This document shows, piece after piece, positions 1,174 through 52,866 of a stretch of 64,000 bases of DNA (positions are counted from its first letter, which is position 1; every line of letters begins with the position of its first letter). The position numbers and the translations under genes are program-made. This DNA comes from Candidatus Eiseniibacteriota bacterium. GTDB lineage: Bacteria; Orphanbacterota; Orphanbacteria; Orphanbacterales; Orphanbacteraceae. The DNA is taken from contig JAJCZU010000008.1 in assembly GCA_029262235.1 (NCBI GenBank), positions 266,381 to 330,380 on the forward strand, in the 5' to 3' direction. The notes under the pieces were generated by a model. That model worked only from the letters and a program-made list of their open reading frames with translations, made no database searches and was not told the origin of the DNA.

Positions 1174-1334
1174 TCGCACGCCCTCGCCCCTGCCCCCGCC
1201 CGTGTCGGATTGACGCGCCCGGCCGTGTCACGGCTACCACATCCCGTTCCCCGCGCTGAATCCCGCACACAACCCCCTTCGCACAACTCCTTCTGAACAG
1301 ATCGTTTATCCGTCTTTGCCCCGCTTTGACGGCT

Positions 1335-1352
1335 CCGGCATACCCCTTGCGT
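1335..1352 (+). promoter_or_regulatory. sigma54 (-24/-12) promoter candidate
   Basis: CCGGCATACCCCTTGCGT = GG-N10-GC, about 40 nt before the SD/ATG. Confidence 0.6.
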
Positions 1353-1393
1353 ATATCAAGGGCAGGAAGTGCTCGCTCACACGGGAGGTATTG

Positions 1394-2683
1394 ATGAAAA
1401 CGACAGCAACCGCATGGAATCTCGCCCTGGTGGGCCTTGTGGCCGCGGTCTGCATGGCCCTCGCGGCGCCCCTCGTCCGGGCCGATGGTTACGTTCGGAT
1501 CGAGGCGGACAGCGACGGCCGGTACAACGTCGGCGTCGGGTATTCCAGCGACAACAACGACTATTATGATGACGGCGCCTGGTACGAAGACGAACTCGCG
1601 CCCTACGGGCGTTGGCGCTACATCGAATCGCTGCAGACCGAGATGTGGTTCCCGTACGTCGACGAAACCTGGCGTCCGTACACCGACGGCCACTGGATCA
1701 ACACGAAACACGGCTGGACGTGGGTCGCCTACGAACCGTGGGGAGACACTCCGCATCACTTCGGGCGCTGGGTCTATCTGAAGCGCGCCGGATGGGGCTG
1801 GGTCCCCGGCGATGAATGGGGTCCCGCGTGGGTCACCTGGGGCGTTGCCGACGGCCATATCGGATGGGCTCCGATCCCGCCCGCCAACTGGGTCTATCAC
1901 GACCGGTTCGACTACGCCTACTCAGGCAACGTCAGCTACGGCTACGGCGGCGACTTCGGCTATCACCGCAGTGGCCTCGACTTCAACTTGTGGGTGTTCG
2001 TCTCGAACGGACGCTTCTACGACTCCCACGTGCGACTGAACCTGGTTTCCGCCGGCAGCTGTGCCGGATGGTTCCAGACACGTCGCGTGCTGCCCATCGG
2101 GCCGCGGCTCCACTCGCACTACGTGAGCCGTTATTGCGCGGCACCGATTCGCACCGTTGTTCTCGATCGTCACAATCATAGCTACGGCAATCACAAGATC
2201 GCGTACTACAAGCCGCACGGCCAGACGCAGAAGATCAAGGAACGCGGCCGCTACGGTGTGTACACGAAACGGCAGCCTGTCTATCGCGCCCAGTCCAAGC
2301 GAAGCGCAGACAATAGCCGCAGCGCCAAGATCGTGCCGAAGTCGAACGTGACCAATCGTTCGAACAAAGCAAACGCGCAATCAACGCGCTACAAGTCGAG
2401 CGATACGAGATCCACGCCATCGAAGTCGCAGGTCACGCGCTCGCAACAGCGATCCGCACCCGACAAGGCGCAGGTCACGCGCTCGCAGAAGCGATCCGCG
2501 CCCGACAAATCACAGGTCACGCGTTCGCAGAAACGATCCGCGCCCGACAAATCGCAGGTCACGCGTTCGCAGAAACGATCCGCGCCGTCCAAGACGACCG
2601 TTGCCGAGCGCTCCTCCTCGCGCGACATCAGCGACAAGCGCTCCGCGCCCTCTCGCTCACGCGACACCAAAAAACGCCGCTGA
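1394..2683 (+). CDS. secreted DUF6600-like W/G/Y-rich protein with basic Ser/Arg/Lys repeat tail
   Basis: Signal peptide; LAPYGRW, WRPYTDGHW, GWTWV..EPWG, HFGRW, WGPAWV, IGWAP motifs; GGAGG SD. Confidence 0.8.
   Translation: MKTTATAWNLALVGLVAAVCMALAAPLVRADGYVRIEADSDGRYNVGVGYSSDNNDYYDDGAWYEDELAPYGRWRYIESLQTEMWFPYVDETWRPYTDGHWINTKHGWTWVAYEPWGDTPHHFGRWVYLKRAGWGWVPGDEWGPAWVTWGVADGHIGWAPIPPANWVYHDRFDYAYSGNVSYGYGGDFGYHRSGLDFNLWVFVSNGRFYDSHVRLNLVSAGSCAGWFQTRRVLPIGPRLHSHYVSRYCAAPIRTVVLDRHNHSYGNHKIAYYKPHGQTQKIKERGRYGVYTKRQPVYRAQSKRSADNSRSAKIVPKSNVTNRSNKANAQSTRYKSSDTRSTPSKSQVTRSQQRSAPDKAQVTRSQKRSAPDKSQVTRSQKRSAPDKSQVTRSQKRSAPSKTTVAERSSSRDISDKRSAPSRSRDTKKRR
2423..2590 (+). repeat. four in-frame 42-bp tandem repeats (KSQVTRSQKRSAPD)
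   Basis: Directly visible in DNA and protein. Confidence 0.95.
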
Positions 2684-2687
2684 TAAA

Positions 2688-2725
2688 AAGGGCGGTCCCT
2701 CGGGACCGCCCTTCCTTCTCTTTCC
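2688..2725 (+). terminator. intrinsic terminator hairpin
   Basis: AAGGGCGGTCCC-TC-GGGACCGCCCTT right after the stop, followed by a pyrimidine run; the A-run before it would allow bidirectional use. Confidence 0.8.
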
Positions 2726-2781
2726 GCTCTTTCTCTTCTCTTCTCTTCCCGCCGCCCTCTTTTCCAACCCTATCTTCGAGC

Positions 2782-2900
2782 AGAGATGAAACAAGCGGTG
2801 GAGAAATCGGTTCTCGGATCGGCGAGGCCTCTTTACTTGGCCATTTGGCCAGGCCGAGCCGTCGAGAGAACTGATTTCTCCAAACGCTCCGTTCTTCTCT
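2782..2900 (+). repeat. structured intergenic element B, copy 1
   Basis: Rod-like hairpin GGAGAAATCGGTTCTC/GAGAACTGATTTCTCC around the 20-nt core TACTTGGCCATTTGGCCAGG, identical at 32466-32485. Confidence 0.75.
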
Positions 2901-2919
2901 TCTCCTATCCCCTCTTATC

Positions 2920-3816
2920 CTACTCCCCTTCCATCTTAAACAAATCCGTACTGAAGTACCGCTCCCCGCGATCGCAAACCAGCGTGACCACGTTCCCGCG
3001 GTCGATTCGCTCGGCAACCTTGCGCGCGGCGTAGAGGTTCGCGCCGGTCGAGATGCCGGCGATGATGCCTTCCTTGCGCGCGATGAGTTTGCCGTTCGCG
3101 ATCGCGTCTTCGTCCGTGACTTCGAACGTTTCTTCGATCCGGGCGCGATCGTAAATCGGCGGCTGGTATCCTTCGGAGCTGTGCTTGAGTCCGTCGATGC
3201 GGCTCCCCTGGCCCGCGGGCTCCACTGCGTACACTTTCGCGTCTACGCCGGCCTGTTCGAACGCGCGGCTCACTCCCATGAGACAACCGCCGGTACCGAA
3301 TCCGCTCACGAACGCCGCCACGTCACCCTTCAGGTCGCGCACGATCTCGGCGCCGGTTCCGATGCAGTGCGCGTTCACGTTGTCTTCGTTTTCGTTCTGA
3401 TCGATATAGAAATATTTCTCCGGATCGGCCGCCGCGAGTTCCTTGGCGCCGTAAATATGGCTGTCCGGATTGTCTTTCGTCGTAAGGCAGAGTTCGGCTC
3501 CCCAGAACGCGAGCATCTTCCTGCGCTCGATCGTTTTGCGCTCCGACATGAAGAACCGGAGCTTGTAGCCCTTCGCGGCGCACACCATCCCGAGTGCGAT
3601 GCCGGTGTTACCACTCGTCGCTTCGATGATCGTCATGCCCGGTTTCAGACGGCCCGACTTCTCGGCCTCTTCGATCATGTGAAGCGCGATGCGATCTTTG
3701 AGCGACCCGCTGGGATTGCAGAATTCGAGCTTCGCCCAGATCCGCACAGCGGGATTCGGGCTCTGGCTTTTCAGTTCGATCAGTGGCGTATTGCCGATGC
3801 ACTGCAGAATGCTCAT
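2920..3816 (-). CDS. PLP-dependent cysteine synthase (CysK/CysM family)
   Basis: IGNTPL, NPSGSLKDR (PLP Lys), EATSGNTG, GFGTGG, CDRGERYFST. Confidence 0.92.
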   Translation of the reverse strand: MSILQCIGNTPLIELKSQSPNPAVRIWAKLEFCNPSGSLKDRIALHMIEEAEKSGRLKPGMTIIEATSGNTGIALGMVCAAKGYKLRFFMSERKTIERRKMLAFWGAELCLTTKDNPDSHIYGAKELAAADPEKYFYIDQNENEDNVNAHCIGTGAEIVRDLKGDVAAFVSGFGTGGCLMGVSRAFEQAGVDAKVYAVEPAGQGSRIDGLKHSSEGYQPPIYDRARIEETFEVTDEDAIANGKLIARKEGIIAGISTGANLYAARKVAERIDRGNVVTLVCDRGERYFSTDLFKMEGE

Positions 3817-3999
3817 GACTTCCTCTTTGGCACGTTCGTTCCCTTCGCCCGGCGCTGAATCTCTCATACTGGCATAAATTGCCCGATCCCGCTACAGGGG
3901 GAGAAAAGGAGTGGCAGATCGCCGTGGCATCTTGCACACTGACGGTGCGCGCTCACGCGAAGACCACATAAATGGCCATATAATTGAGGGAGTTGATAT

Positions 4000-30445: not shown

Positions 30446-32020
30446 CTAAAGTAAAACGTTCGAAGATTCGGTGCGGCGCGATCCCGCGTCCGCCGTTTGT
30501 CGTCTGGTGATCAGTTCGCCGATCGTGCGTATCCCCTGTTCGATGCGATCTTCCGGTTCTTTTGTAAACGAGAGCCGGAACGTGTTCGTTCCGGAGCCGT
30601 CGAGATGAAACAGTTCGCCCGGCGCGAAATTGACGCCGGCGCGGCGCGCCTCGATCAGAAGATCCACCGTGTTCATGGAAACGGGGAGTTCGATCCAGAG
30701 CGACATGCCGCCGTCCGGCTTCGTCCAGCGAACGTCAGACGGAAAAAAGCGCTCGATGGCGCTCAGCATGGCCTGCATGCGATTGTTGTTGATCGCGAGA
30801 ACGCGCTCCAGATGCTCGTCGAGAAGCCCGCGTTCGCAGAAGCGGTGAATCGCGACCTGGGCGAGGCGGCTCGGCGCGAGATCCGTGTACGTCCGGATCT
30901 TGCGGAACGGATCGCAGAACGCTTTCGGAACCGCAAGCCATCCGAGGCGGAGCCCCGGGAAGAGCATCTTCGAGAACGTGCCGAGGTAGAGCACGTGCTC
31001 GTGCCCTTTGAGCGCCTTGAACGACGCAACCGGCTCGCCGGTGTAACGGAGATCCGCGTCGAAATGATCTTCGAGCAGCGGGACGCCGTGGCGCACCGCG
31101 ACTTCGAGCACCTCTTTGCGCCGCGCGAGCGGCATCGTAATCCCGGTCGGATTCTGGAAGTTCGGCATCGAATAAATCAGTTTGGCGCTGCGGCGCGTCA
31201 GTTCGTCGTCGAGCAGGTCCGGACGCATGCCGTGCTCGTCCATCGCGATCGGGACGAGTTCCGTTTCGTAGAGCTGAAATACGCCGATCGCGTTGTGATA
31301 CGTCGGCGACTCCACCATGATGCGGTCACCGCGATCGAAGAGCAGCTTGCTGACGAGATCGAGGCCCTGCTGCGAACCGCCGAGTATGAAGATTTCGTCC
31401 TCGTTGATCGACGCCCCCTGCTCGCGAAGGCGGTTTGCGAGCCATGCCCGCAGAGGCGGGTACCCTTCGCGTGAGCCGTAATCGAGAATGCCCGGCCCCA
31501 TTTCGGCCATCGTTTCGTTCATGACCGCGCGGAAGTCTTCGAGGGGAAAGTGATCGGAGTCGGGCACGAGGCCGCCCAGTTCGATGCGCGGCACGTTGTC
31601 GGTAACGGAGAGCCGGGCGAGGGCGTCAGGTCCCGATCGCGTGCGGCGCGACAGCGTGTGCTCGATGCTTCCGCGATTCGCGCCGCGGGGTCGGTTCCGG
31701 CCGCGCCCTGTCGGGGCCGCTTCGCCGGTACGAACGCCCGCGCGGTCCGGACCGCCCATGATCCCACTCGGGCCACGGTCGCCGACATACGTACCGCTCC
31801 CGACGCGCGTTTGGACCGAGCCGCGGCGTTCGAGTTCGGAATAAGCCTGGGCGACGGTGTTACGGTTCACGCTAAGCAGAACCGCGAGCCGCCTGATCGA
31901 CGGCAGGCGCTCTCCCGCCCCGAGCTCGCCTTCACGCACGAGCGCGTCGATGCCGTCCGCGATCTGCTGATGGATCGGCCTGGTTTCCGATCGATCTATG
32001 ACAATGTTCTGCATGAGCAT
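30446..32020 (-). CDS. pdxR: MocR/PdxR-family regulator (GntR wHTH + aminotransferase-like PLP domain)
   Basis: LPSIR.LA..L.VNRNTV..AY; PNFQNPTG; [15 protein letters not shown]; directly upstream of pdxST. Confidence 0.85.
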
Positions 32021-32051
32021 GACACTTACCACCCCGGCTGTTGATCCACCT

Positions 32052-32104
32052 ATTATATCGGCAAGATTTCTTACAGACAATACGAATTGTCACAAAGTGT
32101 CCCA
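32052..32104 (-). promoter_or_regulatory. pdxR promoter with overlapping operator-like repeats
   Basis: TTGTCT-N17-TATAAT; inverted repeat GACAAT-ACGA-ATTGTC (32076-32091); direct repeat TGTCACA-N3-TGTCCCA. Confidence 0.65.
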
Positions 32105-32115
32105 TGACGGTGGTG

Positions 32116-32201
32116 AGTGGGGGTGGGTCCTGACGCGCCGGGACACCCCGATCTCGACGGGGCTCGATCGGGGCCCCGTCCGGCGCGCCACCCACCCCAC
32201 T
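32116..32201 (-). repeat. structured intergenic element A, copy 1
   Basis: Nested stems; homologous to 52784-52866. Strand inferred from a G-U versus A-C pair in copy 2. Confidence 0.75.
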
Positions 32202-32206
32202 TTTCG

Positions 32207-32290
32207 AGCGAGAAGAAGGGGGAAGGGAAAAGGGAATAGAAAGGAGATGGAGAGAAGAAAGAGGAGAAAGAGAATGGAGGGCCAAGGGGA
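32207..32290. repeat. homopurine (A/G) tract
   Basis: About 80 nt almost entirely A/G; similar tracts at 2712-2775, 2890-2935 and 52905-52995. Confidence 0.85.
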
Positions 32291-32304: not shown

Positions 32305-32540
32305 GGAACAGAAAGAGAGGACAGGATCGGGGCGTCTGGGGACTGACACGCTCCCCGGGCACGACTCCTGACTCGCCTCCAGGGTGCCGGTCCGGAAGTC
32401 GGCGAGGAATACGGGACGGCGAGTGAGGCGCGAGGAGTTGTTCTCCGTATCCCGCTCGGCCTCCGTACTTGGCCATTTGGCCAGGTCGAGCGGGTCGAGG
32501 AGAACAACGACCTCGCGCCTCTCCACCATACGTCCCTCTC
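32305..32540 (+). ncRNA. putative multi-branched structured RNA containing element B copy 2 (32425-32521)
   Basis: Closing stem GAGAGGAC/GTCCCTCTC encloses three hairpin domains; G-U pairs favour the + strand. Expression unknown. Confidence 0.45.
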
Positions 32541-32584
32541 CGCTTCCGGAGCCGAACGCCCGACTCTGGGGTATGCTAGCCAGA

Positions 32585-33634
32585 ATGAGTGCTGCCCGTA
32601 CCATTATTACCGTTCTGTGCATGGTCGCCGGATTCGCCGCGACGTTGTCGCTGATCCCGTTCGAGGCGTGGCCGGTCGAGCTTGCGGCAAGCTTCCGCCT
32701 GCAGATCGCCGTGGTCGCAACGCTGGCGGCTGCGCTGGCGCTCGGCCTGCGGGCCCGCGCGCCGGCCATGATCGCGGGAGCCGCGGCCCTGATCTGCTGG
32801 GCTTCTGTCCTTCCGTTTGCCGTCCCCGGGCCGAAGGACGATACGGCGGAGGCGTTTGGGCGGGAGGCCTCTTCATTCCGCGTTCTGACGATCAACCTCG
32901 AATGGTCGAATCGAAATGCAAATGCCGTGCTCGGCGCGGTGCGCGAGGCGAACCCGGACATCCTCGTCCTTCAGGAAGTGGACAACTGGTGGCGCGAGCA
33001 GTTCGGCGCGCTCACGGACATCTTTCCGATGCAGCGATTCGATCCCCTTTCGCGCCGGCCGGGAGTCGCGGTTCTTCTCGGGAAGAAGATCGAACTCCGC
33101 GACGAGGCGTGGCTGCCGCTTCACGGACGCCCGTATGCCGATTTCGTGCTCGCGGTCGCGCGGGAAGGCGGCTCCGGATCGGAGGGTGGCCTCGAATCGC
33201 CCGGCTCGACAATGGCGCCCGCGTTTCGCCTTACGGCGCTGCATGCGCTCCCGCCACGGTCGGCCCTGCTTTATCGCGCGCGGAAACGCCAGCTCGACGA
33301 CGTGCGCGGGCATCTGCTCGCGCACGCAACGACGGAACCGCAGCTCGTGGTCGGCGACTTCAACACGACGATCTGGTCCCCTTCCTATAGAAAATTCACG
33401 CGTGAACTGCATCTCGAACGGGCTCGCCTCGGCTACGGTCTCGTGCCCACATGGCCTACATGGAATACGTTGCTTCAAGTGCCGATTGACCATATTCTGC
33501 ACTCGCCAGGTTTCGTCGCGACCAATACGAGATCGATCACGATCCCGGGCAGCGACCATCACGGCCTCCTCGCCGACGTGCGACTGAAAGCGCACGCACA
33601 CGGGGACGAGCCTGCACCGGCGAAGGATTCATGA
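32585..33634 (+). CDS. membrane-anchored endonuclease/exonuclease/phosphatase family protein
   Basis: N-terminal TM helices; LT.N, DI..LQEV, VGDFN, IDHIL, GSDH. Confidence 0.9.
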   Translation: MSAARTIITVLCMVAGFAATLSLIPFEAWPVELAASFRLQIAVVATLAAALALGLRARAPAMIAGAAALICWASVLPFAVPGPKDDTAEAFGREASSFRVLTINLEWSNRNANAVLGAVREANPDILVLQEVDNWWREQFGALTDIFPMQRFDPLSRRPGVAVLLGKKIELRDEAWLPLHGRPYADFVLAVAREGGSGSEGGLESPGSTMAPAFRLTALHALPPRSALLYRARKRQLDDVRGHLLAHATTEPQLVVGDFNTTIWSPSYRKFTRELHLERARLGYGLVPTWPTWNTLLQVPIDHILHSPGFVATNTRSITIPGSDHHGLLADVRLKAHAHGDEPAPAKDS

Positions 33635-52783: not shown

Positions 52784-52866
52784 CGTGGCGGGTCCTGTCG
52801 CGCCGCGACACCCCACACCTCGTCAGGCTCGGTGCGGGGTCCCCGTCCGGCGCGCCACCCGCCACG
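52784..52866 (-). repeat. structured intergenic element A, copy 2
   Basis: GGGTCCTG.CGCGCCG.GACACCCC...GGGG.CCCCGTCCGGCGCGCCACCC shared with 32116-32201. Confidence 0.75.

Follow-up and report, generated by a model that had tools for sequence, protein, structure and literature searches.

A long hairpin that occurs twice in a 64,000-nt stretch of a Candidatus Eiseniibacteriota genome (the window, G000:C8:266381-330380), each time with the same 20-nt center between paired flanks, raises the question of what kind of element it is. A preliminary description, made from the letters of the window, proposed that this structure, Element B, is either an undescribed noncoding RNA or a nonautonomous mobile, REP-like element recognized at its apex. 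Here, we follow the element from the window to its genome and to related genomes and weigh the explanations for its paired arms, its placement, and its spread.

The window copies and their genomic family

The 20-nt core is read exactly, on the + strand, at two sites of the window (Table 1) and at no third. With up to three mismatches allowed, the count stays at two, compared to a mean of 0.00 in 100 dinucleotide-preserving shuffles, which confirms the identical core claimed in the preliminary description. Its reading of the flanks, differing in sequence yet paired, likewise agrees with the letters at both copies. Copy 1 has CGGC-GA-GGCCT opposite AGGCC-GA-GCCG, then GGAT opposite TCGA, and then GTTCTC opposite GAGAAC; copy 2 has CCCGCTCGGCCT opposite AGGTCGAGCGGG, then GTAT opposite TCGA, and then GTTCTCC opposite GGAGAAC. 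The outer arms are unrelated in sequence between the copies and complementary within each. Copy 1 folds with a minimum free energy (MFE) of -67.8 kcal/mol on the + strand (z -8.5) and -61.6 on the - strand (z -7.2), copy 2 with -85.9 kcal/mol (z -7.3) and -83.7 (z -7.4), respectively, and every shuffle of the long rods at the two sites folded less stably.

Table 1. Element B copies and neighboring features in the 64,000-nt window
Feature	Position in window	Strand	Basis
Copy 1, core (apex)	2834..2853	+	Exact match, 0 expected by chance
Copy 1, covariance model R1 match	2794..2890	+	93.7 bits, E 1.6e-21, filters off
Copy 1, full rod, 127 nt	2778..2904 (G000:C8:269158-269284)	+	Symmetric arm extension and fold
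Copy 1, surroundings resembling other loci	2718..2919	+	BLAST of copy ±150 nt, query 75-276
Copy 2, core (apex)	32466..32485	+	Exact match
Copy 2, covariance model R1 match	32425..32523	+	88.4 bits, E 3.6e-20
Copy 2, extended rod, 180 nt	32382..32561	+	Arm extension and private-arm test
PLP-dependent enzyme gene (PALP)	2920..3867	-	ORF; Pfam PF00291, E 3.3e-68
DUF6600 gene, upstream of copy 1, convergent with PALP gene	1316..2683	+	ORF; Pfam PF20245
Terminator-like G+C-rich hairpin between DUF6600 gene and element	2688..2713	.	Terminator scan and sequence
Endonuclease/exonuclease/phosphatase-family gene	32585..33634	+	ORF, in-frame ATG; Pfam PF03372
GntR/aminotransferase gene, divergent from gene at 32585	30446..32080	-	Pfam PF00392 and PF00155

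The rod of copy 1 consists of the apex, an inner stem with tandem G-A/G-A, an internal loop, and outer arms, and its opposite strand scores only 20.9 bits against model R1. The stretch around it that resembles other loci, delimited by BLAST against its own genome with self and neighbors excluded, takes in a C/T-rich leader preceding the rod on its 5' side and stops one base short of the stop codon of the PALP gene. For copy 2, resemblance to other copies is limited to 32413-32528, and the outer complementary arms are private to the locus, with a private-arm score of 7.9 compared to a control 99th percentile of 3.9. Run with filters off on the whole 64-kb window, R1 returned the two known copies only.

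The rod of copy 1 lies 16 nt from the 3' end of the PALP gene, toward which its own 3' end is turned, and is antisense to it. The hairpin at 2688-2713 is separate from the repeat and has a T-run on the - strand, read off the sequence; a PALP transcript would meet copy 1 before reaching it. The terminator scan flags this hairpin and not the rod of copy 1, and the sequence after the rod is mixed C/T on one strand and G/A-rich on the other, so that copy 1 does not read as an intrinsic terminator. A small-ORF idea for copy 1, an ATG at 2786 opening an 82-aa frame over the element, was rejected, as the ATG is ACG in sister copies. Copy 2 is in the sense direction upstream of the phosphatase-family gene, in a divergent region, which is a minority placement. 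This gene likely starts with the ATG at 32585, and the 45 nt ahead of this ATG are conserved in the sister species G001; an ORF call spanning copy 2 was rejected as a false 5' extension.

Two further kinds of repetitive sequence were observed beside the element. Long CT/GA polypyrimidine/polypurine tracts of microsatellite-like appearance flank the copies (2711-2777, 2890-2940, and 32205-32290), and many intergenic regions are filled likewise. A second, unrelated family of G+C-rich palindromic repeats, about 70 to 90 nt long, is present at 32110-32200 (MFE, -56.5 kcal/mol) and 52787-52863; BLAST returned 26 hits to it in the genome, including the two window sites, and at least 20 in G001.

Beyond the window, Element B forms a sizable family. 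In the genome to which the window belongs (G000; 4.47 Mb, 11 contigs, 62% G+C, 95.5% complete), the core matches 36 sites with three or fewer mismatches (17 forward and 19 reverse), and the reversed pattern used as a control matches none. A covariance model, R1, built from an alignment of 29 copies (A1), gave 72 matches in this genome at an E value of ≤0.01, comprising 63 distinct full-length copies, one partial copy, and eight weaker echoes on the opposite strand; the family thus has at least 63 members there. At an E value of ≤1e-4, R1 finds 56 copies in G000 and two in G001, which belongs to the same genus (82% complete, 830 contigs), and none in 39 other genomes, namely, seven of the same family from five other genera, one of the same class, and 31 others. 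The weaker R1 matches revealed a sister form with a shorter apex, whose exact pattern occurs 13 times in G000, once in G001, and in none of the seven same-family genomes. A degenerate core pattern found no match in the genome_contigs and metagenome_contigs collections, where records of this genome or very near ones may be left out.

No Rfam family matches the 64-kb window at the gathering score, leaving the element as undescribed there as the preliminary description had supposed. Even at an E value of ≤1, four loci with 12 copies matched plant MIR408 alone, at 24.1 bits compared to a cutoff of 64 bits, which is a generic long hairpin and meaningless. Genomic repeats are absent among the matches listed by a full-text search of the Eisenbacteria literature, as judged from titles and the opening lines of abstracts.

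Identical 20-nt cores occur at 16 loci, and some copies are grouped in arrays. Two loci hold five copies each, a pair on one strand and then three copies on the other; at one locus, three tandem copies recur about every 163 nt. The five-copy loci at G000:C7:123705-124532 and G000:C8:381165-381966 have the same layout, with two copies of one subfamily (-) and then three of another (+), which suggests that an intergenic block of about 0.8 kb was duplicated. Near-identical element pairs are likewise found at the end of contig C3 (G000:C3:631710-631964) and the start of contig C6 (G000:C6:64-315); the assembly was probably interrupted there by the repeats, and C3 and C6 may be neighbors. Short-read assemblies of the genus are broken by the family in practice: contigs of G001 and of two public runs end at them. 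For the two near-identical public samples, X1 and X2, an 11-kb region with four copies is broken at the elements, and no contig joins across a missing element; such breaks leave presence/absence polymorphism unreadable.

Paired arms around a conserved asymmetric center

The apex of Element B is a hairpin of GGCC-ATTT-GGCC, next to which an 8-nt bulge, CCGTACTT or variants of it among copies, is found on the 5' side only. Below it, an inner stem of 11 to 12 bp has two positions that are either tandem G-A/G-A or Watson-Crick TC/GA; then follow an internal loop of one of two types (GGAT/TCGA or GGAG/CGGA) and an outer stem that opens with a pyrimidine-rich 5' side. The core can also be described as a direct repeat of TTGGCCA, with half-sites 8 nt apart, in which each TGGCCA is itself palindromic. 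Avoidance of a restriction site was dropped as an explanation, since TGGCCA is not rare in the genome, with 714 sites. While the center is strongly conserved and asymmetric, the outer arms vary by subfamily, and sometimes by single locus, and are still paired. By symmetric arm extension, 40 of 62 rods are 113 to 138 nt long. Many copies are asymmetric and longer than the rod because of a C/T-rich 5' leader with recurring motifs, the flank upstream of rods, in element orientation, being 43% C and 28% T.

To what extent the arms vary together was read from a model-based alignment of 57 sequences (A3), which was fitted to the structure, so that its counts lean towards structure. In this alignment, 86.6% of the cells are standard-paired, compared to 71.1% in shuffles, and pairing falls to 28 to 46% when the 3' partners are shifted by one to three columns. 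Changes on both sides are seen in 25 of 31 pairs. Complementary changes are abundant among further copies, and neither they nor the Rfam search went against the preliminary description. Its claim that the structure is under selection exceeds the data, however. Complementarity is kept, and it is no proof of selection because selection on an RNA, the need for a hairpin in transposition, and template switching all yield complementary arms.

The strand that matters can be approached through G-T pairs, which are A-C mismatches when read on the other strand. We aligned the 5' arm to the 3' arm with equal scores for both, using one rod for each of 50 clusters at 85% identity. Overall, G-T exceeds A-C by 113 to 74 (binomial p = 0.005, which is overstated by the shared ancestry of clusters). 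This excess is concentrated in the mid-stem, 13 to 35 pairs from the apex (62 versus 17), and is not seen in the outer arms (39 versus 46) or the inner stem (12 versus 11). A cruder count on whole-rod MFE structures (175 versus 173) is superseded by the arm-by-arm alignment. The earlier statement that G-U pairs favor the + strand thus stands for the mid-stem and not for the outer arms or inner stem. Because of the mid-stem asymmetry and the G-A/G-A mismatches, the data say that the relevant hairpin is the one on the strand on which the element was first read.

The outer arms carry a further signature. The sequence common to members of a subfamily stops at a fixed position, after which come 10 to 18 nt that are locus-specific yet complementary. 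When scored against mismatched left and right flanks taken from other copies, private complementary arms exceed the control 95th percentile in 11 of 61 copies and the 99th percentile in five, counts that are a lower bound given imperfect anchoring. Overlap between the outer arm on the 3' side of the element and DNA homologous to the sister species or to orthologues is seen at three loci: at C3:4470, with the final codon of a gene, its stop codon, and the bases that come next; in a gene for a membrane-like protein, with codons for GGRRR; and in dnaE, with codons for M-E. These overlaps are short, and the one checked by eye (dnaE copy 1) is not significant. Taken together, the arm sequences hint, without proving it, that arms were partly copied from the target or extended by hairpin template switching; either process would yield "covariation" without compensatory point mutations.

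Placement beside gene ends and inside coding regions

Placement was determined with a simple ORF caller based on length and GC3 minus GC2, so that the orientation bias rests on crude calls, and copies in arrays and duplicated loci are nonindependent. With this scheme, 57 of 63 copies are intergenic, and their 3' end faces a gene 3' end in 46 cases, a gene 5' end in nine, and a contig end in two. Gene 3' ends lie on both sides, as in convergent regions, for 34 of the 57. The same polarity holds for the 36 copies that have a gene end no more than 120 nt away: the element's 3' end meets a gene 3' end in 29 and a gene 5' end in five, and its 5' end meets a gene 3' end in one and a gene 5' end in one. 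Many rods begin 0 to 27 nt from a stop codon, and in three cases they overlap it by 2 to 6 nt. Neighboring copies within 1,200 nt are ordered -+ nine times, -- seven times, ++ four times, and +- once; neighbors therefore turn their 5' ends toward one another and their 3' ends outward, toward the flanking genes. It also follows from this polar placement that most copies are antisense to the preceding gene, and the strand with the better hairpin is not in that gene's transcript. An orientation linked to replication, as in IS200/IS605-like elements, was rejected, as both orientations occur in one intergenic region, each facing the nearest gene.

Four copies lie in frame within two genes, dnaE and the gene for a membrane-like protein. 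The dnaE copies, C2:113964 and C2:116628, are both antisense and lie inside an open frame of 1,418 aa that is DnaE by its Pfam domains (PHP, DNA_pol3_alpha, finger, and HHH_6); translated in the same frame, they give near-identical peptides. Both inserts are absent from dnaE orthologues of three other genera (61 to 67% identity). In G000 alone, in-frame insertions are present at residues ~89 to 293 and ~997 to 1180, each of which starts with an element copy. For the G001 dnaE, an orthologue search recovered the N-terminal 117 residues alone (81% identity). At the first loop, G001 shares the N-terminal part and lacks a 245-nt block with copy C2:113964, in place of which it has 11 nt and is thus shorter by 234 nt, or 78 codons; the site of C2:116628 falls outside the recovered dnaE sequence. 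The insert-bearing dnaE is intact and has orthologues in seven genomes of other genera (64 to 73% identity). A second DnaE paralogue with 37 to 40% identity is present in all nine genomes of the family, and either paralogue may be the essential one. As side observations, the insert-bearing DnaE (L067:229-4482; G000:C2:113628-117881) has about 390 extra residues relative to its orthologues and a Gly-rich insert near residue 1280, and sequence of the CT/GA type is translated in the dnaE inserts as acidic or Ser/Pro-rich low-complexity segments.

The second gene encodes a hydrophobic protein of 665 aa without a Pfam match, and its open frame holds a head-to-head pair, C4:941046 (antisense) and C4:940929 (sense). 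In G001, the flanking parts of this gene are 90 to 91% identical and contiguous, without the element pair, and the gene likewise lacks it in three outgroup genera. The sister species thus lacks three of the four intragenic copies. At the locus of window copy 1, G001 has, at a contig start, the 3' half of an element with a different arm subfamily, and at that of copy 2 it has a 3'-arm remnant alone, of the same subfamily. These comparisons show that elements have turned over since the split of G000 and G001 and that they have inserted into coding DNA with the frame kept. A candidate in-gene pair was also noted at C2:486404, where a 1,106-aa ORF call with a type IX secretion system (T9SS) C-terminal sorting domain (L069:262-1200; G000:C2:486261-487199) carries antisense and sense element-derived peptides in its N-terminal region, arranged head to head like the pair in the membrane-like gene; the real coding region may start later.

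Given the four in-frame copies in two genes and the absence of three of them from the sister species, the behavior of Element B is that of mobile DNA and not of an RNA gene. In a family of mobile DNA with such covariation, complementarity among paralogues of one genome is therefore no evidence of an RNA gene. For RNA-motif discovery this is a warning: strong z-scores and "covariation" in 25 of 31 pairs occur here in a family that points to mobile DNA.

Candidate explanations and known systems

How the element moves was approached through candidate mobilizers and through its ends. The search for a RAYT, transposase, or reverse transcriptase gene came back empty for the five families searched in G000: PF01797 (Y1/RAYT), PF00078 (RT), PF07282 (TnpB), PF01548 (IS110), and PF01609 (DDE_Tnp_1) have no match in this 95.5% complete genome, and the controls were positive in known genomes (6 of 14 for PF01797). 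Metagenome assemblies often lose IS copies. Four genes lying between neighboring copies were rejected as transposases, being a DNA_alkylation/HEAT protein, two small ORFs without a family, and an M4 peptidase. The copies resemble one another in their centers and not at their termini, over 93 of the 245 nt in the dnaE insert, and shared spans around the core are as short as 49 to 70 nt. Two comparisons of filled and empty sites with G001 gave no clean direct repeat or target-site duplication and no conserved termini, with both junctions diverged.

We conclude that Element B is probably a genus-restricted family of palindromic mobile repeats, similar in kind to Rickettsia palindromic elements (RPEs) and to REPs, with an unusual layout. 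Its copies would have multiplied within one genus of uncultured bacteria, spreading as DNA by way of a hairpin intermediate that is single stranded and has a conserved center that a protein is predicted to recognize. If propagation were limited to hairpin-competent copies, the arms would be kept paired, and copies would persist at sites where insertion costs little, immediately after stop codons or, when in frame, in surface loops. The mobile part of the earlier proposal is thus borne out in kind, with multiple copies, one genus, intergenic placement, arrays, presence differences, and in-frame insertion in its favor, whereas recognition at the apex is a reading of its conservation. Weighed against a mobile family are the empty search in five mobilizer families, the lack of a clean target duplication, and the central position of the similarity; moreover, the mid-stem G-T excess and the conserved non-Watson-Crick features also fit an RNA or a strand-specific function.

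A structured RNA, either a small RNA of its own or part of a neighbor's transcript, whose apex binds a protein and whose copies make up a regulon-like set, is unlikely; in one variant, the bound protein is predicted to set, e.g., mRNA 3' ends, stability, or localization. The element is not the class of noncoding RNA that its fold and covariation had suggested, and an RNA role is kept as a rival. Such a role would suit the conserved tandem G-A/G-A, the 8-nt one-sided bulge, and the purine-rich internal loop, as well as the one-stranded mid-stem preference for G-T over A-C, the single polarity close to stop codons, and the complementary double changes in 25 of 31 pairs. However, most copies have their better-hairpin strand antisense to the gene next to them, so that this strand is not in its 3' untranslated region, and copies are found in frame in dnaE and the membrane-like gene, three of the four missing in the sister species. 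Restriction to one genus, arrays of up to five copies, the absence of a U-tract after the rod in both orientations, and the lack of an Rfam match also speak against an RNA, as does the result of a promoter scan at copy 1, which found no sigma-70-like promoter in a lineage that may use another type. Quite unlikely is an undescribed structure-specific system in which a protein would read the asymmetric apex, insertion would be polar and 3'-first at transcribed gene ends, often 0 to 27 nt from the stop codon, and some of the target flank would be copied into the opposite arm. The mid-stem would tolerate G-T and not A-C. The copying of target flank would account for arms that share no sequence across loci and still pair, with no compensatory point mutations. 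If true, this would be a mode of transposition with inverted, not direct, target duplications, coupled to the termination of transcription or translation.

Paired arms could also arise with no dedicated enzyme, through template switching of host replication or repair at hairpins, which would copy arm onto arm; a variant has the arms extended into flanking DNA and new copies occasionally seeded via microhomology. The empty search in five transposase and RT families, the locus-private complementary arms (11 of 61 above the 95th percentile and five above the 99th), and the three loci with an outer arm overlapping host-homologous sequence are in line with this, and the two-base GA/TC flips in the inner stem resemble a segment replaced by its complement. 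Set against it, 40 of 62 rods at 113 to 138 nt indicate a defined unit, identical cores at 16 loci need copying that carries the asymmetric apex intact, and the host overlaps are short, not significant in one case by eye, with an imperfectly anchored private-arm test, so that we regard template switching as the sole cause as very unlikely. Enterobacterial BIMEs are bound by IHF or gyrase, and Element B could in a similar way be a domesticated protein-binding site in double-stranded DNA, a putative BIME-like site with two TTGGCCA half-sites between convergent genes. The direct repeat of TTGGCCA with its palindromic TGGCCA and the gene 3' ends on both sides of 34 of 57 intergenic copies would suit such a site. 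However, neither complementary arms of 50 nt nor more G-T than A-C on one strand would be required of it, the in-frame copies and the loss or gain between sister species speak against a fixed architectural role, and TGGCCA is common elsewhere (714 genomic sites), which together make this reading extremely unlikely.

The mobile-repeat reading has to be set beside known repeat families. REPs are extragenic imperfect palindromes at gene 3' ends or between convergent genes; they are short, about 20 to 40 nt, with a conserved stem or foot, form clusters of alternating orientation, and probably act as single-stranded hairpins. Like REP, BIME, and REPIN repeats, Element B lies at gene 3' ends, in convergent regions, and in clusters of alternating orientation, and it would probably act as a single-stranded hairpin. 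Unlike REPIN-RAYT systems, its genome has no match to Y1/RAYT (PF01797), its unit is three to four times longer (mostly 113 to 138 nt), its conservation is at the center or apex and not in a stem or foot, and some of its copies are intragenic. MITEs, in turn, are defined by conserved terminal inverted repeats and target-site duplications. Element B lacks conserved terminal inverted repeats, and its varying termini and conserved center are the opposite of a classical MITE. No duplication is visible at the two empty sites, where junctions have diverged. As for a parent IS, the DDE_Tnp_1, IS110, and TnpB families have no gene in G000, and the genes enclosed by element pairs are not transposases. 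Thus, Element B fails the defining REP/RAYT tests and the classical MITE terminal-repeat test, though its behavior resembles both. A repeat borne by a retroelement (retron, group II intron, or DGR) is likewise not indicated, as PF00078 has no match in G000. With this atypical layout and the absence of the five searched families, Element B may mark a novel mechanism of mobilization outside the known ones. In a published review (PMC10969869), bacterial MITEs such as Correia/NEMIS, ERIC, BOX, and RUP are, like Element B, nonautonomous repeats of ~100 to 200 bp that fold into long hairpins; they are often at gene 3' ends and sometimes intragenic, in frame, and their RNA is a possible substrate of RNase III or RNase E.

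What is new in the confirmed observation is a palindromic family with a conserved asymmetric center, variable arms, and strict polarity to gene 3' ends. It adds a free-living, high-G+C lineage to a very short list of those with palindromic repeats in frame inside essential genes; in the dnaE case, the gene type is that of the replicative polymerase alpha subunit, which bears on how selfish DNA creates protein segments. The nearest behavioral counterpart is the RPE of Rickettsia. In the same review (PMC10969869), RPEs are ~150 bp long and insert in frame into unrelated genes, with 44 in Rickettsia conorii, nearly half of them possibly translationally fused. Going by this description, Element B is like an RPE in being palindromic, ~100 to 150 bp long, present in dozens of copies in one genus, both intergenic and in frame in unrelated housekeeping genes, where it is translated as extra peptide segments, and without a known transposase. 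Such behavior is seen directly in the two in-frame copies in dnaE and the two in the 665-aa protein, where frames are open and orthologues lack the inserts. Unlike the reduced, intracellular host of RPEs, the host of Element B is free-living, with 62% G+C and 4.5 Mb; confirmed intragenic copies are four of 63, compared to the nearly half that could be translationally fused in R. conorii, and Element B is strongly polar beside stop codons. Common descent of Element B and RPEs is unlikely, and the likeness drawn here is one of behavior.
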